59,449 nucleotides of DNA from a virus (Duplodnaviria > Caudoviricetes), in the IMG/VR virus record IMGVR_UViG_3300016265_001128, positions 1 to 59,449 of that record. The stretch is one strand, 5' to 3'. The position numbers and the translations under genes are program-made. A model generated the notes under the pieces. That model saw nothing but the letters and a program-made list of their open reading frames with translations. It was not told the origin of the DNA and made no database searches. Shown in pieces: positions 8,024 to 48,376 of the stretch (positions are counted from its first letter, which is position 1; each line of letters starts with the position of its first letter).

Positions 8024-8221
8024 ATGGCTAAGTTCTTTCTAGCCACTGGCGTTATTGTTTGGTCTATTAACGCCTACCTGATTTTGTTTGAATTTCTCTC
8101 AAGGCCTACGTGGTGGCGCTTTACGCTGCTGTGTCTAACTGTGCTTTTTACGCACTTTACGGCCCTCGTGTGGCGTGAACTCTATAACCGGGAGACTGAA
8201 AATGGCCAATGCCAGCGGTAG
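8024..8221 (+). CDS. Small two-TM membrane protein
   Basis: AAGGAGG RBS; TATAAT at 7980; two hydrophobic helices. Confidence 0.65.
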   Translation: MAKFFLATGVIVWSINAYLILFEFLSRPTWWRFTLLCLTVLFTHFTALVWRELYNRETENGQCQR

Positions 8222-9071
8222 AAAGGTGGACACAACCCATCTTTCTTGGGAACAGACGGCCGAACGGCTGATCTTCCACAGGGATACACAGGCTCACTTC
8301 ATGCGGTGGAGCCATGTGCTCAAGTACCTCCAAAACTCAAAACATCGGGGCGAAGCGCGGGTCCTTGAACTCGGCTGCGGCAAGGAGCTGCCGTTGCCCC
8401 GGCTGCTGTACAGCAACAAGTGCGTGCCGAAGGCCTACTGCGGCGTCGATTACCGCAAGAACCTTGACCGGCCTGAAATGTTGGCAAAGGTTATCGAGTC
8501 CGGCAAATTCAATTTCAAGCTTTTGCCCAGCCAAGATGCGGCGACCGTCTCTAAGGAGCAAATCGGCTTTACGCCAGACGTGATTGTCAGCTTCGAGTGC
8601 ATCGAGCACGTCGAGCCGCTTCACGCCAGGAACATTTTGCTCAACGCCCGCTACCTGCTGGCGACCGGCGGCGTGATGTTCTTGTCCACGCCCTGCTACG
8701 ACGCAAATGTCGGCGCGGCCGATAACCACGTCAGCGAAATCACCTACCAAGCGCTCGGCTCCCTGCTGGAAGATCTGGGCTTCACTATTGACGGGGTCTG
8801 GGGCACTTTTGCCTCTATCCGCGACTATGAAACTGCCCTTGCTAAGCAGTACGGGAAAGCCGGCACCGATATCTTCAATAAGCTCCGGGAATATTATGAC
8901 ACAAACATCCTCGCCAACGTCTTTGCCCCCCTCTTCCCCGAGCACAGCCGAAACGCCCTTTGGCAGCTCTCCTACGACCCACAAACCAGCCTCGATCGAC
9001 GGTACCCTCCCCTTGCCGACGTTAAAGGACCCTGGACAAGCAGCGCCGCCTGGGCAACTCTTGCCGGCTAA
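8202..9071 (+). CDS. Class I SAM-dependent methyltransferase (not a canonical DNA MTase)
   Basis: VLELGCG motif I, GVD motif II, SFECIEHV and LSTP; no PC or DPPY motif. Confidence 0.85.
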   Translation: MANASGRKVDTTHLSWEQTAERLIFHRDTQAHFMRWSHVLKYLQNSKHRGEARVLELGCGKELPLPRLLYSNKCVPKAYCGVDYRKNLDRPEMLAKVIESGKFNFKLLPSQDAATVSKEQIGFTPDVIVSFECIEHVEPLHARNILLNARYLLATGGVMFLSTPCYDANVGAADNHVSEITYQALGSLLEDLGFTIDGVWGTFASIRDYETALAKQYGKAGTDIFNKLREYYDTNILANVFAPLFPEHSRNALWQLSYDPQTSLDRRYPPLADVKGPWTSSAAWATLAG

Positions 9072-9474
9072 ACACGTCGGCTATTCGCCGTTCAGTTACT
9101 TCGAGGCTGTCGCGTCGTTCCACATCCGCTTTGGCCTAGAGTACAATGGCCCAGGGCGGTTCTTGTCTGACGAGTCCGAAGAGCTGGAAGCCTTTCGGGT
9201 CAAGTTCCTCTATGAGGAACTGGAAGAATACGTCGAAGCCCTAGCCATGGCAAATAAGGCTCAAGCCCTCGACGCGTTGATCGACTTGATCTACGTAGCC
9301 CTAGGCAACGCCTATCTCCACGGTTTCAAGTTCGACGAAGGCTTCTGGCGAGTGCACGAAGCCAACATGGCAAAGGTTCGCGCTGAACGGAAGGGCGACA
9401 GCAAGCGCGGTACCACGTATGATATCGTCAAGCCGGCAGGCTGGACGGCTCCAGACCTTGGAGATTTGGTATGA
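9061..9474 (+). CDS. MazG-like nucleoside triphosphate pyrophosphohydrolase
   Basis: EELEEY...DALIDLIYVALG...VHEANMAK..KPAGW; start taken as the in-frame TTG overlapping the MTase end (uncertain). Confidence 0.85.
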   Translation: MPAKHVGYSPFSYFEAVASFHIRFGLEYNGPGRFLSDESEELEAFRVKFLYEELEEYVEALAMANKAQALDALIDLIYVALGNAYLHGFKFDEGFWRVHEANMAKVRAERKGDSKRGTTYDIVKPAGWTAPDLGDLV

Positions 9475-10472
9475 CCATCAGAGGCATCATCGTTCTAGAT
9501 GGGCCTGACGCATCTGGCAAGTCAACGCTTGCCAAGACGATGCAGGAACTCTACGGCGCCAAGATACTTCATGCCACCTACCGCTTTAAAAACAACATGT
9601 TTGCCTACCACACGGCAATCTTGAAAAAGGCTATTGCGGAAAGCCAAAAAGGTTTGGTTGTCATTGACCGCCTGTGGCTCAGCGAACAGGTCTACGCCAA
9701 CGTTTTTCGCGGGGGTAGCAAGTGGCCGCTTGCCGGTCGCTTTATCGATCGAATGCTCCTCAGGTTTGGGGCGTTGAACGTCATCTGCCTGCCATCGGCG
9801 GTCACGGTTTCTGTAGAAAACCACCGCAAAAACCTCGATCCCAGCCACCCGTACGATGACGATAAAGTCCGTGAGCTTTACGCCGGTTATGACGCGGCTT
9901 GGGGACGCCTGAAGTATCGACACGACTATGCTCGCTATAGCTTTGACAAGGACGGACAAAACACTTACGATTACGCGGACTACTTGGTCGTTCGGCTGAT
10001 GCAAGTTCAAGCCCTGCAACCGAATGACCTAGACGCCAGGCAGTGGCCGGAATTTCGCAACTTTGGAGGTTCGGTCAAATTGTCAAAGACGCTGATCGTA
10101 GGCGAACGGTCCAACCCAAAGTGGAACAGCGTCAACTGGCCGTTCTACGAGCACGGGAACTCAAGCCTATTTCTAGCAAAGGCGCTAGAAACGATTGGCG
10201 CCGGCGAACCATCCCTATGCTTTATGAACGCTGTAGAAGGCGGCCGTTTCCAAAACACTACTGAACTTTGGATTAGTCGTCTCGCTGAAACCAAGCGGGT
10301 GGTCTGCCTCGGCAACGTGGCCTATCGTACTGTCCGTCGGCTTGTGCCTGGAACGAAGCGAGTCAGGTTAGTTCCGCATCCGGCGTACTACCAGCGGTTT
10401 AAGGCCGCCGACGCCGTATCCTACGAGCGACTTCTTTGGGAGGCTATCAGTGACATACCATACGGCGACTGA
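9471..10472 (+). CDS. dNMP-kinase domain fused to a uracil-DNA-glycosylase-like domain
   Basis: N-terminal LDGPDASGKST and IDRLWLSEQVY; C-terminal LIVGER..., FMNA, VVCLGNVA, PHP pattern of the UDG superfamily. Confidence 0.8.
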   Translation: MTIRGIIVLDGPDASGKSTLAKTMQELYGAKILHATYRFKNNMFAYHTAILKKAIAESQKGLVVIDRLWLSEQVYANVFRGGSKWPLAGRFIDRMLLRFGALNVICLPSAVTVSVENHRKNLDPSHPYDDDKVRELYAGYDAAWGRLKYRHDYARYSFDKDGQNTYDYADYLVVRLMQVQALQPNDLDARQWPEFRNFGGSVKLSKTLIVGERSNPKWNSVNWPFYEHGNSSLFLAKALETIGAGEPSLCFMNAVEGGRFQNTTELWISRLAETKRVVCLGNVAYRTVRRLVPGTKRVRLVPHPAYYQRFKAADAVSYERLLWEAISDIPYGD

Positions 10473-11289
10473 CGCTTGGGTATACCTTTTGACTAACGTC
10501 GCAATTCTTGGCGAACGGCAAAAGCCCAGGGGACTCGAGACTCGAGAATTGCTGGGATACCAATTCCGAGTAGATATGGAGTATCCAGTGGTCAACGTCA
10601 AGGCCCGTGAATTAGGCTTTCGCTTCCTTGCGGCAGAAGCCTTCTGGATCCTAAATGGCGACAACCGCGTCAGCACCATCTCACCGTTTTCCAAAGCCAT
10701 CGCCAATTTCAGTGACGATGGCGTTTATTTTGCCGGCGCCTATGGACCTCGCGTGGTTGATCAATTGAGTTATGTCGTCGATCAGCTCGTTGCTGACCCC
10801 TCGACGCGTCAAGCCGTCTTAACGATCTGGCGACCCAACCCCAGGCCTAGTAAAGACATCCCCTGCACGATTGCCTGCCAGTGGCTTATTAGACCACACT
10901 GGGAAACCAAGGAGCCGGCGCTGTACTGCATTGACACGATGCGCTCGTCCGACGCGTGGCTGGGGGTGCCGTACGACGTCTTTAATTTCAGCCAGCTAAG
11001 CTTGCGCATTGCTCTGCTGCTGCGCAACCGCGGACTCCTAGTACGGCTAGGTGGTTTGGTTTTGCAGGCCGGCTCTCAACACCTGTACGAAAAGGATTGG
11101 GAAGCAGCTAGGAAAATCATCACGGGTCCTGGCCTTGATCCTGAGCCAGACCTCAAAGTCAATCCGCATTTCAAAGTGTCGGAATTTGCCGACCCCGAAA
11201 CGCATCTTGACTTCCTCAGCCACGCTCTTAACGACGGCAGATCTTGGTTTGAAGCGGCGTGGCCTGCTGAAGAAGGTTCACAAAAATGA
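10450..11289 (+). CDS. Thymidylate-synthase-family enzyme, predicted dCMP methylase/hydroxymethylase
   Basis: PRG, AYGPR, TRQAV, DIPC (catalytic Cys), MRSSDAWLGVPYD and HLYE; Asp at the E. coli TS Asn177 position. Confidence 0.85.
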   Translation: MTYHTATDAWVYLLTNVAILGERQKPRGLETRELLGYQFRVDMEYPVVNVKARELGFRFLAAEAFWILNGDNRVSTISPFSKAIANFSDDGVYFAGAYGPRVVDQLSYVVDQLVADPSTRQAVLTIWRPNPRPSKDIPCTIACQWLIRPHWETKEPALYCIDTMRSSDAWLGVPYDVFNFSQLSLRIALLLRNRGLLVRLGGLVLQAGSQHLYEKDWEAARKIITGPGLDPEPDLKVNPHFKVSEFADPETHLDFLSHALNDGRSWFEAAWPAEEGSQK

Positions 11290-11771
11290 CAAGCCGTATT
11301 TCCTTTGACGAGTACGCCATGAACTTGGCGTTCGTCGCCTCGTGGCGTGGAACCTGCGCTCGCCGACAAGTTGGCGCTGTATTAGTCAATCGCCGAAACC
11401 ACATTTTGGCCATTGGCTACAATGGGGTGGCTTCGGGAGTTGAGCATTGTCGTGGCTCTAACCCGCTATGCCCCGGGGCTCAGCTACCGTCTGGTACCGG
11501 TCTAGATCTTTGCGGAGCCATCCACGCCGAACAGAATGCGCTGCTGCAGTGTCGTGACGTCTACGACATAAAAACGGTTTACTGTACACTCAGCCCATGC
11601 TTACATTGCGTCAAGCTTCTGATGAACACCGGAGCTGAGCGCATTGTATTTGCCACGCCCTACGCCCATATTGAAAGCGAAGGCTTGTGGGTGTCAAGTC
11701 GAGCCGGGAGGCAGTGGGATTACTTCGACGCCTTCCTGCCGCCCGTCATAGGAAGAGCCGAGCTTGTCTAA
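11286..11771 (+). CDS. dCMP deaminase family protein
   Basis: C.RRQVGAV, GYNG, HAEQNA and SPCLHC Zn motifs. Confidence 0.92.
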   Translation: MTSRISFDEYAMNLAFVASWRGTCARRQVGAVLVNRRNHILAIGYNGVASGVEHCRGSNPLCPGAQLPSGTGLDLCGAIHAEQNALLQCRDVYDIKTVYCTLSPCLHCVKLLMNTGAERIVFATPYAHIESEGLWVSSRAGRQWDYFDAFLPPVIGRAELV

Positions 11772-13671
11772 GCAAAAGTTTATACCTGGGCAATTGTCGC
11801 TCTTTAAGCCCCAAACGACGTGGACACCGCCGCAGCCGTCAGACTGGCCTGATTTCACCAAGGCCAGTCTGATTTCCATTGACACGGAAACAAAAGATCC
11901 AGAGCTTAAGACCAAGGGACCTGGGTTTGCCCGGGGGAAAGCTCATATTGTCGGCGTAAGCCTGGCAGCGGAAGGCCTAGGCTCGATCTACTTGCCCATC
12001 CGCCACGCCGGAGGCGGCAATGTTGACGAGCAACGGGCGCTTGAGTACTTACGACACACCCTCAAAACGCCTGTTCCTAAGGTGGGCGCAAATATCATAT
12101 ACGACCTTGAGGCCTTGCAGGCCGAAGGGGTCGAGGTAGGCGGTAGTGCCTACGACGTTCAGACAGCGGATTCACTGCTAGACGAGACTCAAAACTCTTA
12201 TTCTCTCGGGGCTATTGCTAAGCGTCGACTAGGCGAAAGTAAAGACGAGTCCATGCTTCAGGCTGGCGCTGAAGCATTTGGTGTCAACGCCAAAGACGGC
12301 ATGTGGCAACTGCCGTCTGGTTATGTTGGACAATACGCTGAGACGGACGCCTTTCTGCCGCTGGCCATTTTCAAGGTTCAGCAGCCGCTTCTTGAGGCTG
12401 AAGAAATGAGTCAAGTCTTTGATCTAGAGACAAGACTTATCCGAGCCGTACTGGCCATGCGGTTTAGGGGAGTCCGTGTCGATCTAGACCGAGCCGATCG
12501 TCTGCGCAAAAGGCTTCAGGCTGAAGAAGAAGCCCTGTTGACTGAGATGAAAAAGCAAGCAGGGATTCCGTTCGAGGTGACTCAGCCGCGTTCGATGGGG
12601 CGTGTGTACGATCAGCTTGGTATCCCGTATTTCCTCACGCCGAAGTCAGGAGAACCGTCGTTCACTGCTGAATACTTGAAGGCTCAGGTCGACCCATTTA
12701 GTGCGATGTTCCTCAAGGTCAAGCGTCTCCAAAAAGCTAGACGAGACTTCATTGACGGCTTGATCTTTAACTTTGTCACAGACAAGGGACGCATACACCC
12801 AACGTTCAGAGCTTCTAGAACGGAAGATGGCGGGGCTCGCTCTGGTCGATTTTCGGGCGAACTACCCAACCTTCAACAGGTACCAGCTAAAGACGACGCT
12901 TACGGCCCTGAGATAAGATCCTGCATTATCCCAGAAGACGGCTGTCAGTGGGGAGCCCTTGACTATAGCCAGCAAGAGCCTCGTGTCACAGTTCATTTGG
13001 CCTACAAGCTCAAACTGCGAGGTTCCGCCATTGCTCGGCAGCGTTACATCGACGACCCAAGCACTGACTACCACGCCATGGTCGCCTCGCTGGCCGGCAT
13101 TGAACGCAAGCCTGCGAAGACTTTGAACCTCGGGGCGGCTTACGGCATGGGCATTAGCAAAATGATGGTGCAACTTGGCATGGACCCTGAAAAAGCTAAG
13201 GCTACTTACGAGGCCTACCACCAAGCTATCCCGTACGTAAAGGAGGCCGGTCAAATCTGTTCTAATCTTGCGCAAGAACGAGGCTGGATAAAAACGTTGC
13301 TCGGTCGTCGTCGTCGGTTTAATTTGTGGGAACCGAGGGATCGTAACAAGGGCGAGGCAATTATTCCGACGACCTTAGAGCAGGCTAGGCTTCTTTGGCC
13401 TGATCGACCCATTAGGCGGGCGTTCACTCACAAGGCCTTGAATGCCGCCGTTCAGGGGGGTTCTGCAGACATGGTAAAGAAGGCTATGGTTGACATCCAC
13501 GAGGCTGGCCTTAATACAATGCACTTAACCATGCACGACGAACTTGGCGTTTCGCTAGAGTCTGATGCCGTAAAAGATAAAATCGTTCAGCTCATGCTTG
13601 ATTGTGTAAAGCTTGAGGTTCCACTACGCGTAGACGCCGAGGTTGGGCCTAGCTGGGGAGAAGCCAAGTGA
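11764..13671 (+). CDS. Family A DNA polymerase with 3'-5' exonuclease domain
   Basis: DTET exo I, YAETD exo III, SGRFS..PNLQQ, DYSQQEPR, K..NLG..YG, QG..AD and HDE. Confidence 0.95.
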   Translation: MSKQKFIPGQLSLFKPQTTWTPPQPSDWPDFTKASLISIDTETKDPELKTKGPGFARGKAHIVGVSLAAEGLGSIYLPIRHAGGGNVDEQRALEYLRHTLKTPVPKVGANIIYDLEALQAEGVEVGGSAYDVQTADSLLDETQNSYSLGAIAKRRLGESKDESMLQAGAEAFGVNAKDGMWQLPSGYVGQYAETDAFLPLAIFKVQQPLLEAEEMSQVFDLETRLIRAVLAMRFRGVRVDLDRADRLRKRLQAEEEALLTEMKKQAGIPFEVTQPRSMGRVYDQLGIPYFLTPKSGEPSFTAEYLKAQVDPFSAMFLKVKRLQKARRDFIDGLIFNFVTDKGRIHPTFRASRTEDGGARSGRFSGELPNLQQVPAKDDAYGPEIRSCIIPEDGCQWGALDYSQQEPRVTVHLAYKLKLRGSAIARQRYIDDPSTDYHAMVASLAGIERKPAKTLNLGAAYGMGISKMMVQLGMDPEKAKATYEAYHQAIPYVKEAGQICSNLAQERGWIKTLLGRRRRFNLWEPRDRNKGEAIIPTTLEQARLLWPDRPIRRAFTHKALNAAVQGGSADMVKKAMVDIHEAGLNTMHLTMHDELGVSLESDAVKDKIVQLMLDCVKLEVPLRVDAEVGPSWGEAK

Positions 13672-14024
13672 ACGAAGCCGACTTTTACCGTACTATTTCA
13701 AGGAACCTTAAGCCTCTTGGCTACCTGTTCCAGCGAATAGAGACGTCGACGCAATCAGGCGTATTTGATACGGTCGTCATGAAGAAGCCGTACACGGCTT
13801 GGGTAGAGTTTAAGATTGACAGAGGTCGAGCTGACCAACTGCTGAGACCGTCGCAGCGCGCGTGGGTCTTGCAGGTTAAGCCTTACTGCCAAGAGCTATA
13901 CGTTTTTCGGCTTGAGAAAGATAAGATTTCAGTGTACGGCGCCATTGAAGAAGCGCTACTATTCTCTCATGAGCTTGACGACTGGAAAGCCTTTGCTCAG
14001 AAGTGGCCTAGAGCTTTTCGATAG
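13668..14024 (+). CDS. PD-(D/E)xK nuclease (VRR-NUC / resolvase-like)
   Basis: E..F, RIET...GVFD, WVEFK and LRPSQRAW; typical partner of phage PolA. Confidence 0.8.
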   Translation: MNEADFYRTISRNLKPLGYLFQRIETSTQSGVFDTVVMKKPYTAWVEFKIDRGRADQLLRPSQRAWVLQVKPYCQELYVFRLEKDKISVYGAIEEALLFSHELDDWKAFAQKWPRAFR

Positions 14025-14092: not shown

Positions 14093-14755
14093 ATGAAAAC
14101 AACACTAGCGGCAATACGCGCCGAATCGCCATGCACAGATGGCTGGAAAAAGTTGATAAACCATCTCGGCGGGGTCAATCTTTATGGGCTGACCACTCCG
14201 CTTGACGTTGCCACCATCCTCGAAAGCAACGGCTTTGATGACGCGCTATGGGTTCTCGATAAAGCCTGCGGACCCGATGGCACGCGCCTTTGTCACGTCT
14301 TCGCCTGCGACGTGGCGGAAAGAGTTTTGCCCATTTTCGAGCGGGCCAGCTCGAATGACACTCGGCCTCGTAAAGTTATAGAGATCAAACGGCTGTGGAT
14401 TGCCGGTGAAGCGACGGACGAAGAATTATTTGCTGCCTGGGAAGCTGCCTGGGAAGCCGCCAGGGCCCCTGCCAGGGCCGCCGCCAGGGCCGCCGCCAGG
14501 GCCGCTGGCTGGGCCGCTGGCTGGGAAGCTGCCTGGGACGCCTGGGAAGCCTGGGACGCTGCAAGTGCCGCCGCCTGGGACGCTGCCTGGGACGCTGCCA
14601 GGGACGCTGGCTGGGCCGCTGCAAGTGCCGCCGCCTGGGACGCTGCCTGGGACGCTGCCAGGGACGCTGACTGGGACGCTGACTGGGACGCTGCCTGGGC
14701 CGCTGAACGCAATTGGCAAATAGCGCACCTGCACGAGATGCTAAAGGGGGAGTGA
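14093..14755 (+). CDS. Phage protein with Ala/Trp-rich (AAWD) repeats
   Basis: PC.DGW.KL, ILESNG.DDALW, FACD.AE.VL, D.RPR, then a tandem repeat. Confidence 0.8.
   Translation: MKTTLAAIRAESPCTDGWKKLINHLGGVNLYGLTTPLDVATILESNGFDDALWVLDKACGPDGTRLCHVFACDVAERVLPIFERASSNDTRPRKVIEIKRLWIAGEATDEELFAAWEAAWEAARAPARAAARAAARAAGWAAGWEAAWDAWEAWDAASAAAWDAAWDAARDAGWAAASAAAWDAAWDAARDADWDADWDAAWAAERNWQIAHLHEMLKGE
14430..14705 (+). repeat. Coding tandem repeat, about 12-bp unit GCTGCCTGGGAC with a 60-bp higher-order duplication
   Basis: Directly visible; block gctgcaagtgccgccgcctgggacgctgcc at about 14558 and 14618. Confidence 0.9.
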
Positions 14756-15104: not shown

Positions 15105-15185
15105 AACAATGACCGATTACGACCAGATCGCTGCGGGCTTATGCGACACCCGCGCCCCGAAGTATCGAAAGAGGAGGCTGGAGCC

Positions 15186-16133
15186 TTGAGACCGTTGTGT
15201 ATCTATCACGGCAACTGCGCGGACGGCTTTGGTGCTGCTTGGGTTGTTCGAAAAGCCCTTGCTGGCAAAGTCGATTTTCATGCTGGCGTATACCAGAACC
15301 CGCCGCCGGACGTGTCCGGCCGTGACGTAATTTTGGTCGATTTCAGCTACAAGCGTCCGGTGCTGGTGAACATGCTGCGCTCTAGTGACATTCAGCAGGC
15401 GAACACGATCCTTATTCTGGATCATCACAAAACGGCGGCGACTGATCTGGCGGAGATTGAGCCTCCAGAGAAAGGTTTGGGCTATGACCCAGGCCGCTGG
15501 CGCCGCGAATGGGAAAGCTGGGCCGTCTGGCCGGTGCGCGCGGTGTTCGACATGGAACGATCCGGCGCAATGATATCGTGGGATTACTTCTTTCCCGGCC
15601 AGGAACCGCCAGCACTGCTGCGCCACATCCAGGACCGCGACCTATGGCTCTTCAAGCTGGACGGTACGCGAGAGATCCAGGCCAACCTATTCAGCTATCC
15701 CTATGACTTCGATGTCTGGGACAAGCTGATGGACATGGACGTGCAGACGCTGCGCATCGAGGGTGCCGCAATCGAGCGCAAGCACCACAAGGACATTGGC
15801 GAGCTAGTCGGTGTGACAAAGCGCCGCATGGTGCTCGGTGGTCATAACGTGCCCGTCGCCAATCTGCCCTACACCCTGACCAGTGACGCCGGCCACCTGA
15901 TGGCGGAGGGTGAGCCTTTTGCGGCCTGCTATTGGGACACGCCAGACGGGCGCGTCTTCTCCCTGCGATCCACGGATGAAGGGCTCGACGTGTCCGAGAT
16001 TGCCAAGAGCTACGGCGGCGGCGGGCATCGCAATGCTGCGGGCTTTCGCATGTCCATTGGCTGGGAAGGCGATGGGCGTCTATCAAGCTATGCGAACTGC
16101 TTGCAGCAGCCATCAGAAAGGGGGAGTGAATGA
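15186..16133 (+). CDS. DHH/DHHA1 family phosphoesterase
   Basis: YH.NCADG, VDFS, LDHHKT, D.DLW, SLRS and GGGGH.NAAGF; start may instead be 15141. Confidence 0.9.
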   Translation: MRPLCIYHGNCADGFGAAWVVRKALAGKVDFHAGVYQNPPPDVSGRDVILVDFSYKRPVLVNMLRSSDIQQANTILILDHHKTAATDLAEIEPPEKGLGYDPGRWRREWESWAVWPVRAVFDMERSGAMISWDYFFPGQEPPALLRHIQDRDLWLFKLDGTREIQANLFSYPYDFDVWDKLMDMDVQTLRIEGAAIERKHHKDIGELVGVTKRRMVLGGHNVPVANLPYTLTSDAGHLMAEGEPFAACYWDTPDGRVFSLRSTDEGLDVSEIAKSYGGGGHRNAAGFRMSIGWEGDGRLSSYANCLQQPSERGSE

Positions 16134-27049: not shown

Positions 27050-27673
27050 TTACCCCTTTACCACGGCGCCAGCATCCACTGTGCGGCTCTTGTTCTCGCT
27101 ACCGAGGGCCTGGGCAGCTCGGTCGTATCTCGATTGCCAAACCTCGATCTTGTCCATCTCTTGCAGGTACGGGATGGCCTCAAGCAGAGTGGCGTACAGG
27201 ATCAGATCTGGCGCGTATTGCGTCAGCCAGTTGGTGCTGACTTGATCCGACAAAGGCTCAGGCAGCTGGAAAAAAGACAGCTCGAAGTTGGATGCAGCTA
27301 CCGGGGTCGGCGCAATTAAAAAGTAGTCGAACGAATAGTCAGCAAAATATTTGGGAGCCCCGGTTTCTGTGGCCGTTGGCCAATAGTTGCGGCAGAAATC
27401 GAGCGGCCTCAGAAATAACTGAGTACGCTCCGGGCCGTAGAAAAACCACAGCGTTTCACGCCAGCGAGCAGGCTTCGGGAGTGTTGGGCTGCCTGGGGTA
27501 AAGTTGCCAGTGACAAAGGACTCGAGGCCAAGAACCTTCACCTCGCGGGCAATGCGAGCCTCAGCCAAGGTGATCAAGGTGGGGATTACCGCCACAAACG
27601 TTTCGTCGGTGCGCTCGGTCCAACGTTGGACGTCTTGCTGCAACGAGGTGTACGTCATGTTTGGCACGGGCAA
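27050..27673 (-). CDS. Putative head-tail adaptor
   Basis: TY.SL, I.LAE.RI.R, G.P..F, PTP and TNWL...PD..LYA.L.EA. Confidence 0.7.
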   Translation of the reverse strand: MPVPNMTYTSLQQDVQRWTERTDETFVAVIPTLITLAEARIAREVKVLGLESFVTGNFTPGSPTLPKPARWRETLWFFYGPERTQLFLRPLDFCRNYWPTATETGAPKYFADYSFDYFLIAPTPVAASNFELSFFQLPEPLSDQVSTNWLTQYAPDLILYATLLEAIPYLQEMDKIEVWQSRYDRAAQALGSENKSRTVDAGAVVKG

Positions 27674-46047: not shown

Positions 46048-46660
46048 GGTGATCCTTCATTTGGGCAAGGCCGCCTTTAGCGAAAGGCTTGAAGTAGTCG
46101 GAGAAATCTAACGGTTCTGGGTCATCACGCCGAAAACCTCTTTCTGGGACAACGGACCTTACCTGCCTTAGGTTTTCAAGTAGGGAATTAATGCTTTCGT
46201 CGTACAGCACGTTTTCCCCTTTAAGGGGACCGTATCCAAAGTATGGAAACAACCCGAGGATCGTTTTGTCTTGGCCTTGGTTAACTAAGCCTCGGTTTCG
46301 GTGGCGACCTTCGTGGCCGGCTATTCGGGCGACTGACAGATCTGACGGATCTCTTGGAATAATACTTAAGTGTGGCACGCTTGAAAAGCCGCCCTGATCC
46401 AAATACTTTTCTACCTTGGTTACATTCTTCAATGTCTGCTTTGCGCGATGCTCGGGAAGTCCAATGGCTAGTTCCTCAAACCGAGACGGGTCAAACGGCG
46501 TGATTGCAGCGCCAGCGTGGTTAAACAGGTGCGACAACGCCCCGTCCGTAAATTGTTGCTCAATTGCCGGAACCTCATCGGTTGCGCGTTCTAACCGACG
46601 GGCTCCAAGCACGCCTCGGCTCTGGGCTAACGCTCGGATTAACGCGGGGATGTCAGCCAC
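46037..46660 (-). CDS. ParB/Srx-like domain protein with C-terminal FAKGG tag
   Basis: VP.L...I.GHEGRHR motif; GTG with GGAGG RBS. Confidence 0.6.
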   Translation of the reverse strand: MADIPALIRALAQSRGVLGARRLERATDEVPAIEQQFTDGALSHLFNHAGAAITPFDPSRFEELAIGLPEHRAKQTLKNVTKVEKYLDQGGFSSVPHLSIIPRDPSDLSVARIAGHEGRHRNRGLVNQGQDKTILGLFPYFGYGPLKGENVLYDESINSLLENLRQVRSVVPERGFRRDDPEPLDFSDYFKPFAKGGLAQMKDHHAD

Positions 46661-46975
46661 GGGTACCTCCACTGGCTTGGGCGAGGCCGCCTTTTCTAAA
46701 ACCTAAACGCTTAGCAAAGGGAATGTCTTCGAACTCTTGCGGGGAATGGTTGTTGTCGTAAGGTAGTAAAGGGATATGGGTCCGCTGTTCAAATCTTGAA
46801 GCCTGCTCAGATGGAACGATAAGCGCAGACACGTCATCAAGCGTCACGGGTTTATGCACTTGGGCCTCAACATACGGGGTGGCTTGCTTCAGCATATCCT
46901 TAGACGCTCCCAAGCGTCGTCGCCCTTAGCTAGCCACTTGGTAAGTACCTTTCTCAAGGCATCGACGCTGGCCAA
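46653..46975 (-). pseudogene. Broken cargo gene: 28-aa N-terminal ORF out of frame with a C-terminal fragment (YVEAQVH motif, FRKGG tag)
   Basis: TTG 46975 (GAGGA RBS) ends at 46889; the other frame encodes PYVEAQVHKPVTLDDV, resembling DUF3626/ART-like C-termini. Confidence 0.5.
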
Positions 46976-46978
46976 TCC

Positions 46979-48376
46979 TCAAACTCCGTACGGATTTTCG
47001 CGCGGTTGGCGCGGCTCGGGTTCAGGCTCTGGGGGATCAATCGTCAACCACCGCTGGTCGCGCAGCAAGGCAAGCGCTTGGGTGAAAGAGTCGACGTAAT
47101 CGTCATGTTCTAACACGCTATCGTCGCCGTTGAACACACAAATTTGGTCGAGAAAAGGCGTAGCCCAGTCACAAAACATACCGGGACGCCGCTTTGACTC
47201 AGGGATCCAGACTCTCCCGTTGACGGGGAAGTGGCTCACGGCGTGCGCTCGCTGAGCCTTGTCAGCACGCCCCGGGTTGTAAGGCCGAACCGGCACGCCA
47301 GCCCGATGCAGCTCTTGGCAAAGAGAGATACCGGAGCCCTTGTCCTCAATCAGCAGGATATCAGGACGACGCGGCGGATCGCCATATTCTGCGATTGCCT
47401 CTTCCTTTGCCTTGGCCCGCAAGTCTGGAAACGTCAGGCGATCGGCCCAGGCGTCGCACAGCAGGACGTTAAGCTGCCGCTCAGGCCCGTGCTCGAAGAC
47501 ACCCCACGTAGTGCAGGCGGTCTGGTCGTTGATCGTCTTGTCCGTGAACGCCGTGTCATACGACTGGACAACGTACAGAAACTCAGGCAGATCCTTGTTA
47601 CTTGGCCAGAGTCGGAAGTCCTTGCGCTTGAAGATACCGCCCTCTTCAAGGTCAAGCAGTTCGCCGTACAGCTCTTGGCGGCCAATGGCCGTGCCCTCGT
47701 ATTGGGCGATGGCGGTGAAGAACGACGGGGCTAGGTTCTTGCGGTTCTCGTACGTTGTCCCCATGACCTTCATGATCCGGGGATTATTCACCAGGTCTCG
47801 GATAATCTTCTTGGGTTTTGGCGTCGTGGCCATGAGGATCTTTGGCCGTGTGCCGAGGCGGAGGCCAAACTGCATCATGTCCCAGGTGTCTTGGGGCCGA
47901 ACCCAGGCGGCAACCTCGTCACACAAGACGGCGTGATGCTGCGGACCACGAAGGCGTTCCGGTGACTCGGACGAGAAGCCCTTGAAGATGGTGCCGTTTT
48001 TCAACACCATCTCGAACAGCGACTTGTTGTAGTTCTCTATCAACTCGGGCGGCGTCGAGGCCAAGAGGCCGGACTCACCCTCAAAGCACGTGTCTCGGAC
48101 GTCAGAGCTTGTTGGAGCAATGACAGCGATGCGCCAGTTGGCGTTTTTGTAACCAAGCCACCAACCAGCTTCTGACAGACACTTGGTCTTGCCAAAGCCG
48201 CGACCAGCGAGCCACAAGATGCCGTCCCAATCTTCGTGGTCGGGAGCTAGTTGCTTGGGTCGAGCCTGCCCGATCCATTCCGTTCGCTTGGCAATAGCCG
48301 CCAAGTCCTCCAATGGCAGATCATACAGATCGCTCTGGAGGTTAAACAGCTCAGCGTCGTTCAGCAGAAAAGACAA
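46979..48376 (-). CDS. terL: Terminase large subunit
   Basis: AGRGFGKT Walker A, LRGPQ...CDE Walker B, TTP, SYDTAF, IEDK.SG and HDD.VD. Confidence 0.95.
   Translation of the reverse strand: MSFLLNDAELFNLQSDLYDLPLEDLAAIAKRTEWIGQARPKQLAPDHEDWDGILWLAGRGFGKTKCLSEAGWWLGYKNANWRIAVIAPTSSDVRDTCFEGESGLLASTPPELIENYNKSLFEMVLKNGTIFKGFSSESPERLRGPQHHAVLCDEVAAWVRPQDTWDMMQFGLRLGTRPKILMATTPKPKKIIRDLVNNPRIMKVMGTTYENRKNLAPSFFTAIAQYEGTAIGRQELYGELLDLEEGGIFKRKDFRLWPSNKDLPEFLYVVQSYDTAFTDKTINDQTACTTWGVFEHGPERQLNVLLCDAWADRLTFPDLRAKAKEEAIAEYGDPPRRPDILLIEDKGSGISLCQELHRAGVPVRPYNPGRADKAQRAHAVSHFPVNGRVWIPESKRRPGMFCDWATPFLDQICVFNGDDSVLEHDDYVDSFTQALALLRDQRWLTIDPPEPEPEPRQPRENPYGV

Follow-up and report, generated by a model that had tools for sequence, protein, structure and literature searches.

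A predicted dCMP hydroxymethylase and a virus-only methyltransferase share a phage cytosine-modification cassette: a possible route to 5-methoxymethylcytosine

The complete virus genome IMGVR_UViG_3300016265_001128 from IMG/VR (59,449 bp with direct terminal repeats; this whole stretch is called the window here) carries at positions 8202-13671 six plus-strand genes, each overlapping its neighbour by 4 to 23 nt. In order, they encode an S-adenosylmethionine (SAM) methyltransferase (MT), a MazG-like pyrophosphohydrolase, a fusion of a kinase with a uracil-DNA glycosylase (UDG) fold, a thymidylate synthase (TS) homolog, a deoxycytidine monophosphate (dCMP) deaminase and a family A DNA polymerase (PolA). 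A sequence-only reading of the window had arrived at the same overlapping order, which is confirmed here. From its active-site residues, the TS homolog probably makes 5-hydroxymethyl-dCMP, and its gene is found together with that of the MT in nearly every related locus with enough flanking sequence. The reading that we tentatively prefer is a T4-like, pre-replicative replacement of cytosine by a base derived from 5-hydroxymethylcytosine (5hmC), in which the MT may O-methylate the hydroxymethyl group to give 5-methoxymethylcytosine. Domain identities, the active-site signature, synteny and co-occurrence were computed here, and the residue rules and the restriction behaviour are taken from papers; from these we infer the rest.

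What does the TS homolog make? Active-site residues were used to place the enzyme because its overall similarity to the Xp12, E. coli and T4 enzymes is about equal. A signature of five positions (143, 146, 147, 169 and 177 of E. coli ThyA) was read from a profile alignment with reference enzymes from public records; positions 80 and 83 aligned unreliably and were not used for classification. The window enzyme belongs to PF00303 and reads D-C-T-D-D. The catalytic Cys146 is kept in KDIPCT and Asp169 in RSSD, and the motif RSSDAWLGVPYD, in which the sequence-only reading had noticed an Asp in place of Asn177, is indeed present, its final Asp (in GVPYD) aligning with E. coli Asn177. The same signature is found in T4 gp42, the dCMP hydroxymethylase. 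E. coli ThyA and the high-scoring TS copy of RB69 read L-C-H-D-N, the Xp12 dCMP methylase N-C-P-D-D and the second RB69 homolog E-C-T-N-D, which fits the rule for 5-hydroxy-dCMP synthases. The single TS homologs of SPO1, ViI, M6 and phiW-14 read D-C-N-D-N, phiW-14 being presumably one of the phages with bases derived from 5-hydroxymethyluracil. Asp143 is common to T4 gp42 and these four, a position at which Leu or Asn stands in each of the three methyl-transferring enzymes compared. A dUMP hydroxymethylase of SPO1 is named in PMC5175136, and M6 and ViI carry bases derived from 5-hydroxymethyldeoxyuridine according to an abstract that also names a Delftia phage. As for the rules themselves, PMC13326640 states that Asp177 instead of Asn selects dCMP (a cytosine-substrate rule also given in PMC5175136), that enzymes with methyl products have a bulky hydrophobic side chain at 143 and the T4-like hydroxymethylases and MilA an Asp or Glu, and that Asn169 marks the flavin-dependent 5-hydroxy-dCMP synthases (Lee et al. 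2026).

The best solved relative of the TS homolog is the CMP hydroxymethylase MilA (E 4e-21). Ser167 and an Arg opposite MilA Lys133' are residues of the deoxy type and fit a deoxy substrate. Because D-C-T-D-D is also the signature of the T4 dCMP hydroxymethylase, the predicted product is 5-hydroxymethyl-dCMP and not 5-methyl-dCMP. The idea of a dCMP-directed TS homolog serving to replace cytosine gains support from Asp177 and from the signature shared with gp42, and of the two products offered in the sequence-only reading the hydroxymethyl one is favoured over the methyl one. This product also changes the expected source of dTMP: deaminated 5-hydroxymethyl-dCMP would be 5-hydroxymethyl-dUMP, so that, contrary to the earlier supposition, dTMP would not come from deamination of the product. 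The observation behind that supposition holds, as neither a ThyA with Asn177, nor ThyX, nor any second TS homolog was found in the whole record. Three other assignments of the enzyme were tried and do not fit its residues. A canonical ThyA would have Leu143, His147 and Asn177, where Asp, Thr and Asp are found; a 5-hydroxy-dCMP synthase would have Asn169, as does the second RB69 homolog used as a control, where Asp is kept; and an Xp12-type dCMP methylase would have Asn143 and Pro147 in place of Asp143 and Thr147, with an identity of 26% between the two enzymes.

How strict is the tie between the MT and this type of TS? In IMG/VR, 271 stretches encode a relative of the MT; the best 80 of the 271 were kept and, together with 6 from a first scan, gave 86 loci. 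The MT is near full length in 84 of them and a TS homolog is encoded in 69 of those 84, with 13 of the 15 TS-less loci ending within 3.5 kb of the MT. Where at least 3.5 kb is available on both sides of the MT, a TS homolog is present in 50 of 52 loci. Seven loci with a divergent TS escaped tblastn with the window TS and were recovered with a small profile, and the tblastn counts for the other members in the 52 well-flanked loci are therefore lower bounds (MazG at least 43, kinase 41, UDG part 36, deaminase 43 and PolA 37); PolA comes next after the deaminase in 37 of the 52. Seventy-eight TS sequences were aligned after one fragment (L057) had been dropped, and 74 of them read D-C-T-D-D: the window, T4, HTVC200P, AXL3, MW202510 and all 69 readable copies from the IMG/VR loci. 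Xp12 alone reads N-C-P-D-D, and the three L-C-H-D-N sequences are that of E. coli and the second, canonical copies in L066 (741-1589) and L072 (314-1288), which score 339-373 bits as ThyA. Each of the 34 long MT-bearing records has the TS homolog, with canonical ThyA in addition in two and ThyX in two (those behind L012 and L045). Co-occurrence of the MT with Asp-type TS, proposed as a check by the sequence-only reading, is thereby borne out.

The link survives changes of gene order (kinase-MT-TS, kinase-TS-MT and TS-MT-deaminase) and of genome type, one such setting having a class II ribonucleotide reductase alongside; the fetched stretch of L071, a T4-like fragment, showed no TS homolog. Approached from the TS side, at least 553 relatives were found and the best 80 kept, a set partly overlapping the MT-based one. 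Among these 80 nearest relatives the MT is present in 47 of the 52 well-flanked loci, and the 5 loci without it look like T7-like pelagiphages with kinase and TS only, as in HTVC200P. The arrangement is not a product of chance, since dozens of IMG/VR contigs repeat this gene order with proteins 40-60% identical; a megablast search with the 5.5-kb region returned nothing from 50,697 phage records. Given the strict dependence of the MT on a hydroxymethylase-type TS, the simplest acceptor for its methyl group would be the hydroxymethyl group.

The MT family is large, virus-only and uncharacterised: 827 of 1513 candidate proteins are relatives at E<=1e-5, many of them on contigs of 40-70 kb, and the ESM Atlas clusters nearest to the MT by features are 95-100% viral and carry generic names only. 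The start at ATG 8202, giving MANASGRK, agrees with the N-terminus of the family, whose isoelectric points span 5.1-7.8. The AF2 model (pLDDT 91.5) has seven strands in a Rossmann-like arrangement and places the protein among the class I SAM methyltransferases. Foldseek returned the polyketide O-methyltransferase StiD and the cap N7-methyltransferase on top with no clear winner, VIA-align returned 4htf (Z 19.7), ChlM (19.2) and HEN1 (17.4), and in NCBIfam only UbiG and BioC came up, far below cut-off. Within class I, the modelled fold is closest to the small-molecule and RNA enzymes. In an alignment of 31 members the invariant segments are an N-terminal HRD...H..RW.H, motif I (LELGCGKE, with G58 and G60 invariant), FExxEH after strand 4, STP, H176/E179, YYDxN and SRN.

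DNA methyltransferases are recognised by a catalytic Cys in the C5 enzymes and by (D/N/S)PP(Y/F) after strand 4 in the amino enzymes. The MT family shows neither. No Cys is invariant among the 31 members (C59 is found in about 90% and C165 varies), which makes covalent C5 chemistry unlikely, and the MT was rejected on this ground as a C5-pyrimidine methyltransferase, that is, as a SAM-dependent dTMP or 5-methylcytosine (5mC) synthase. The amino-methyltransferase motif was not found after strand 4 of the MT, where FExxEHVEP stands instead. Nothing in these features suggests a DNA methyltransferase of a known class, and the view of the MT as an unexplained extra without their hallmarks, possibly adding a modification of its own (O-methylation was one of the guesses), holds up.

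Which phages could be grown with this cassette? tblastn with the MT against the 50,697 phage records gave five matches: Stenotrophomonas phage AXL3 (two accessions), Pseudoxanthomonas phage PW916 and two metagenomic genomes. No cultured phage other than AXL3 and PW916 was found to carry the MT, and there was no match in the Xp12-type phages. The Xp12/DLP4-like siphoviruses named by the sequence-only reading as carriers of similar cassettes, whose TS is of a different type, thus give way to these two. AXL3 has the MT, pyrophosphohydrolase, kinase fusion, TS and deaminase in the order of the window. AXL3 and PW916 share with it 34% identity in the MT and 45-47% in the TS, and differ in being 47.5-kb siphoviruses whose PolA gene lies away from the cassette; AXL3 also has ThyX. 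The cassette genes of both are annotated as ordinary thymidylate synthesis.

AXL3 DNA has been studied by digestion. According to PMC7504290, only TasI and Tru1I cut it among 37 enzymes whose sites the genome contains, and the authors state that the nature of the modification is unknown. By our count the AXL3 genome has 13 KpnI sites and 14 Eam1105I/AhdI sites. By contrast, Xp12 DNA fully substituted with 5mC is digested completely by KpnI and AhdI (PMC7653180), and the DNA of AXL1, handled in the same laboratory with the same host strain and a largely shared panel as AXL3, is cut partially by KpnI and Eam1105I (PMC9206674). AXL1 has a TS of the Xp12 type (78% identity) and a dihydrofolate reductase (DHFR). 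Since AXL3 resists enzymes that cut Xp12 and AXL1, the DNA made with an AXL3-type cassette behaves unlike 5mC DNA; the digests fit 5hmC and something bulkier alike. The text on PW916 yielded no restriction data.

How would the cassette work? The MazG-like enzyme, a candidate dCTPase, would convert dCTP to dCMP, keeping cytosine out of the DNA and feeding the next step, in which the TS homolog is predicted to form 5-hydroxymethyl-dCMP from dCMP and methylene-tetrahydrofolate. The modified monophosphate, which host kinases would refuse, may be phosphorylated by the fused kinase, by analogy with T4 gp1, and the resulting triphosphate incorporated by the phage PolA. The deaminase, like T4 cd, would produce dUMP from dCMP, and the host ThyA would use it to make dTMP. 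The MT would then be the tailoring enzyme, standing where T4 has its glucosyltransferases and the MetaGPA phages a carbamoyltransferase, and by this analogy it may use SAM to methylate the 5-hydroxymethyl oxygen, either of the free nucleotide or of the base in DNA, to give 5-methoxymethylcytosine. We hold this scheme as a whole to be plausible, somewhat short of an even prospect. A bolder and more doubtful proposition is that the virus-only MT family as such converts 5hmC to 5-methoxymethylcytosine, fully replacing cytosine here, in AXL3 and PW916, and in phage genomes that number in the hundreds from sea, freshwater and soil.

The logic and activities are those of T4 (gp56 dCTPase, gp42, gp1 dNMP kinase, cd deaminase and alpha/beta-glucosyltransferases), and in both the tailoring gene adjoins the hydroxymethylase gene, as b-gt lies beside gene 42. 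However, the proteins are not close relatives (the two TS share 24% over 120 aa), the window dCTPase candidate is of the MazG type and that of T4 of the dUTPase type, the window kinase is fused to a UDG fold, its polymerase is of family A, and its tailoring enzyme would be a SAM methyltransferase in place of a glycosyltransferase. In the MetaGPA phages, as described by Yang et al. (2021, PMC8670742), a carbamoyltransferase together with TS, PRA-PH and deaminase leads to 5-carbamoyloxymethylcytosine. The window has the same TS, PRA-PH and dCMP deaminase scaffold plus one transferase, but there the transferase is a carbamoyltransferase, and the main text of PMC8670742 nowhere uses the word methyltransferase. 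The 5-hydroxy-dCMP synthases (RB69 gp48 and DLP3 gp80, PMC13326640) are likewise TS homologs in which position 177 is Asp and position 143 acidic, but they have Asn169 and use flavin, whereas the window enzyme keeps Asp169. The Xp12-type phages (Xp12, DLP4, AXL1 and PaMx74) resemble the window in having an Asp177-type TS flanked by genes for a dCMP deaminase and a protein with a MazG-like domain, and their DNA resists most enzymes with G/C sites. They differ in the TS signature, in the DHFR gene adjoining TS in Xp12 and AXL1, and in the cutting of their DNA by KpnI and AhdI/Eam1105I. In Xp12 (L004) a gene beside TS (46207-46980), annotated 'HAD superfamily hydrolase', contains a stretch 43% identical to the window MazG-like protein; 5mC phages therefore also pair a MazG-like domain with a TS homolog.

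Several observations weigh against the proposed scheme. Could the TS homolog be a dCMP methylase after all, as in Xp12, with 5mC in the DNA, part of the 5-methyl-dCMP deaminated to dTMP, and the MT an extra or an unrelated protein? The predicted product depends on a residue rule, the TS homolog is about as distant from T4 gp42 (24% identity over 120 aa) as from the Xp12 TS (26% over 248 aa) or E. coli ThyA (25%), and a pairwise alignment to the TS structure 6auj gaps and places Ile, not Asp, opposite Leu143, which the profile and MilA alignments do not. In the preprint 10.1101/2024.12.05.627091, seven TS homologs linked to deaminases in PRA-PH/PolA neighbourhoods were tested and five of them produced 5-methyl-dCMP, and a neighbourhood of PRA-PH, TS, deaminase and PolA is enriched around 5mC-selective deaminases. 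Asp177 is moreover common to the window and Xp12, and there is no separate dTMP synthase here or in 30 of the 34 related long records, as expected if dTMP came from 5-methyl-dCMP. These points meet a signature which differs from that of Xp12 at 143 and 147 and equals that of gp42, and DHFR was found neither in the record nor in any fetched IMG/VR locus. Together with the 26% identity, this leaves the analogy with Xp12 drawn by the sequence-only reading unsupported. Nor do KpnI and Eam1105I cut AXL3 DNA, as they do the 5mC DNA of Xp12 and AXL1. The ThyX of AXL3 and of two records, and the canonical ThyA of two others, would be redundant if deamination supplied dTMP, a weak argument given that just 4 of the 34 long records have such a synthase. 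On balance an Xp12-like 5mC pathway appears improbable.

If 5-hydroxymethyl-dCMP is made, is its oxygen the acceptor? The MT might instead methylate N4, N3, a sugar hydroxyl or another metabolite of the pool, leaving 5hmC with a further mark or plain 5hmC in the DNA. All the evidence for a hydroxymethylase applies equally to this alternative, and plain 5hmC would equally explain the resistance of AXL3. The fold matches of the MT are generic (Z 19.7, 19.2, 17.4 and so on) and name no acceptor atom, and no fused or longer forms of the MT were found, which is weak evidence. The MT tracks MazG and deaminase as well, in 43 of 52 loci each and as often as it does the kinase, which means that it could be partnered with something other than the hydroxymethyl group. 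In every architecture seen, the MT lies in a context of nucleotide metabolism: in L090 and L087 it adjoins genes for a class II ribonucleotide reductase, an SSB and a dUTPase-like protein, and in L071 its surroundings are replication genes like those of T4. Its invariant His/Arg-rich N-terminal segment (H26 R27 D28 H32 R35 W36 H38) could bind phosphate. What speaks for the hydroxymethyl oxygen is the lack of the amino-methyltransferase motif after strand 4 and the tie of the MT to hydroxymethylase-type TS, with no tblastn match in the 5mC phages of the Xp12 type; methylation at another atom, or of another metabolite of the pool, is in our judgement unlikely, though it deserves to be kept in mind. 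A role away from DNA altogether, on RNA, protein or a host metabolite, with the MT merely sharing an early operon, would suit its structural neighbours among tRNA, small-RNA and mRNA-cap methyltransferases (HEN1, RNMT and Trm9), a PHROG match to 'tRNA methyltransferase' (E 4e-4) and the label 'capping protein' given to one MT relative in GenBank. Such a role does not predict that one TS subtype accompanies the MT almost without exception, in podovirus-like, siphovirus and T4-like settings and through rearrangements, nor does it predict the missing match in 5mC phages with otherwise similar cassettes, and we give it little credence. O-methylation of a 5-hydroxymethyl group thus stays our tentative choice.

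The scaffold itself is already known from T4 and from the work of Yang in 2021 and 2024; the MT-bearing version is new relative to the searchable literature. The literature, apart from supplements, gave no report of methoxymethylcytosine in a phage, of an O-methyltransferase acting on 5hmC or of this combination of genes. In the 2024 preprint (10.1101/2024.12.05.627091) 'methyltransferase' refers to unrelated DNA methyltransferases only, and in PMC13229309 O-methyltransferase domains are merely listed near phage TET/JBP-like dioxygenases.

The genes of the cassette and the open reading frame (ORF) that follows it are listed in Table 1.

Table 1. Cassette genes of the window and the adjoining reading frame, with their main profile and fold matches.
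Gene or product	Position	Strand	Length	Matches
SAM methyltransferase (MT), class I	8202..9071	+	289 aa	Methyltransf_23 E 2.8e-14, 53.6 bits vs cut-off 27
MazG-like / PRA-PH pyrophosphohydrolase	9061..9474	+	137 aa	PF01503 E 1.3e-10, 41.9 bits vs cut-off 21.3
Kinase/UDG fusion	9471..10472	+	333 aa	P-loop dNMP/dN-kinase fold N-terminal, UDG fold C-terminal
TS homolog, predicted dCMP 5-hydroxymethylase	10450..11289	+	279 aa	PF00303 78.6 bits vs cut-off 24.3
dCMP deaminase	11286..11771	+	161 aa	PF00383 (dCMP_cyt_deam_1) E 2.6e-21, 75.9 bits vs cut-off 25
Family A DNA polymerase (PolA) with 3'-5' exonuclease domain	11764..13671	+	635 aa	PF00476 E 6e-55 and PF01612
Small PD-(D/E)XK / VRR-NUC-like protein	13668..14024	+		weak only: PF08011 E 0.005, phrog_2165 E 3e-7

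The overlaps measure 11 nt between MT and MazG-like gene, 4 nt between the latter and the kinase, 23 nt between kinase and TS, 4 nt between TS and deaminase and 8 nt between deaminase and PolA; the MazG-like gene probably starts at a TTG. Its product belongs to the PRA-PH proteins and matches the nucleotide pyrophosphohydrolases of phrog_671 (E 3.5e-26). The deaminase (phrog_174, E 2.2e-37) is a family member with intact zinc motifs, HAE in AIHAEQN and PCxxC in SPCLHC, and PolA is likewise assigned with confidence by its scores, with DNA_pol_A at 187.1 bits against a cut-off of 34.3 and PF01612 at 23.8, also above cut-off.

The fusion protein is recognised mainly by its fold. Both of its Pfam scores lie below cut-off (Cytidylate_kin 19.6; UDG 17.6, with a cut-off of 24.3). 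The kinase domain has a P-loop, GPDASGKST, and the kinase fold, and it matches phrog_761 thymidylate kinase (E 7e-10); its family profile matches SPbeta YorR (2axp, E 1.8e-12). In the AlphaFold model (pLDDT 85.7) the N-terminal half resembles deoxynucleoside- and thymidylate-kinase folds, with Foldseek matches to thymidylate and deoxyadenosine kinases at a target TM of 0.55-0.69, and the C-terminal half matches UDGs of the family-4 type (UdgX and T. maritima UDG) at E of about 5e-5 and a target TM of about 0.5; a PDB profile search with the family profile had no UDG among its best 60 matches. Family-4 UDGs have a motif A (GE..), a motif B (HP.) and an iron-sulfur cluster held by four Cys. The window domain keeps G(E/D)xxNxK and HP(S/A/Q)xxxRF, and has no conserved set of Cys. 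Kinase and UDG parts form one ORF in 95 of the 95 loci in which both were detected, some of these loci sharing contigs; MW202510 and HTVC200P have the kinase alone, without the UDG part.

What else lies around the cassette? The small ORF behind PolA overlaps its stop codon and is taken as a neighbour only, with no role in the pathway assigned to it; MW202510 has a gene annotated 'vrR-nuC' at the equivalent position. Further on, a 220-aa ORF (14093-14755) has a C-terminal half of Ala/Trp/Asp-rich repeats (AAWDAAWDAARDA...), a repeat through which long ORFs run uninterrupted on either strand in more than one frame. Just 3' of the replication genes, a DHH/DHHA1 phosphoesterase (15141-16133; phrog_4771, E 1e-107) is possibly a nuclease or phosphodiesterase supplying the nucleotide pool. 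Among 20 further large ORFs scanned with Pfam (window positions 17830-48376), neither a glycosyltransferase nor any other modification enzyme came up; 18 had no Pfam match, and the remaining two are an SU10-type adaptor protein (27050-27673; PF24175, E 3e-25) and a T4-type large terminase (46979-48376), which suggest a podovirus of the SU10-like kind.

T7-like pelagiphages (HTVC200P and HTVC119P; loci L129, L162, L163 and L171) have only a small kinase and a TS homolog, the latter about 50% identical to that of the window. The TS homolog of Pelagibacter phage HTVC200P (L093, 4965-5783) is annotated 'thymidylate synthase' and reads D-C-T-D-D. Since it is predicted to be a dCMP hydroxymethylase, abundant marine T7-like pelagiphages may contain 5hmC. 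The annotation deserves correction: the 'thymidylate synthase' of AXL3, PW916, HTVC200P and HTVC119P is a predicted dCMP hydroxymethylase.

The MT-bearing scaffold is common, as the 271 IMG/VR stretches and the 827 proteins at E<=1e-5 indicate, and the proposal is directly testable because the cassette is present in two phages in culture, AXL3 and PW916, the first of which is known for the unusual resistance of its DNA. The cytosine replacements known from phages are 5mC, 5hmC with its glycosyl and carbamoyl derivatives, and derivatives of 5-hydroxycytosine. If the MT does cap 5hmC with a methyl group, the result would be a new natural DNA base, and the MT a new enzyme with which to label or protect 5hmC. 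For the phages, it would be a cheap way to evade both classical restriction and 5hmC-dependent nucleases, as the capped hydroxyl would hide the base.

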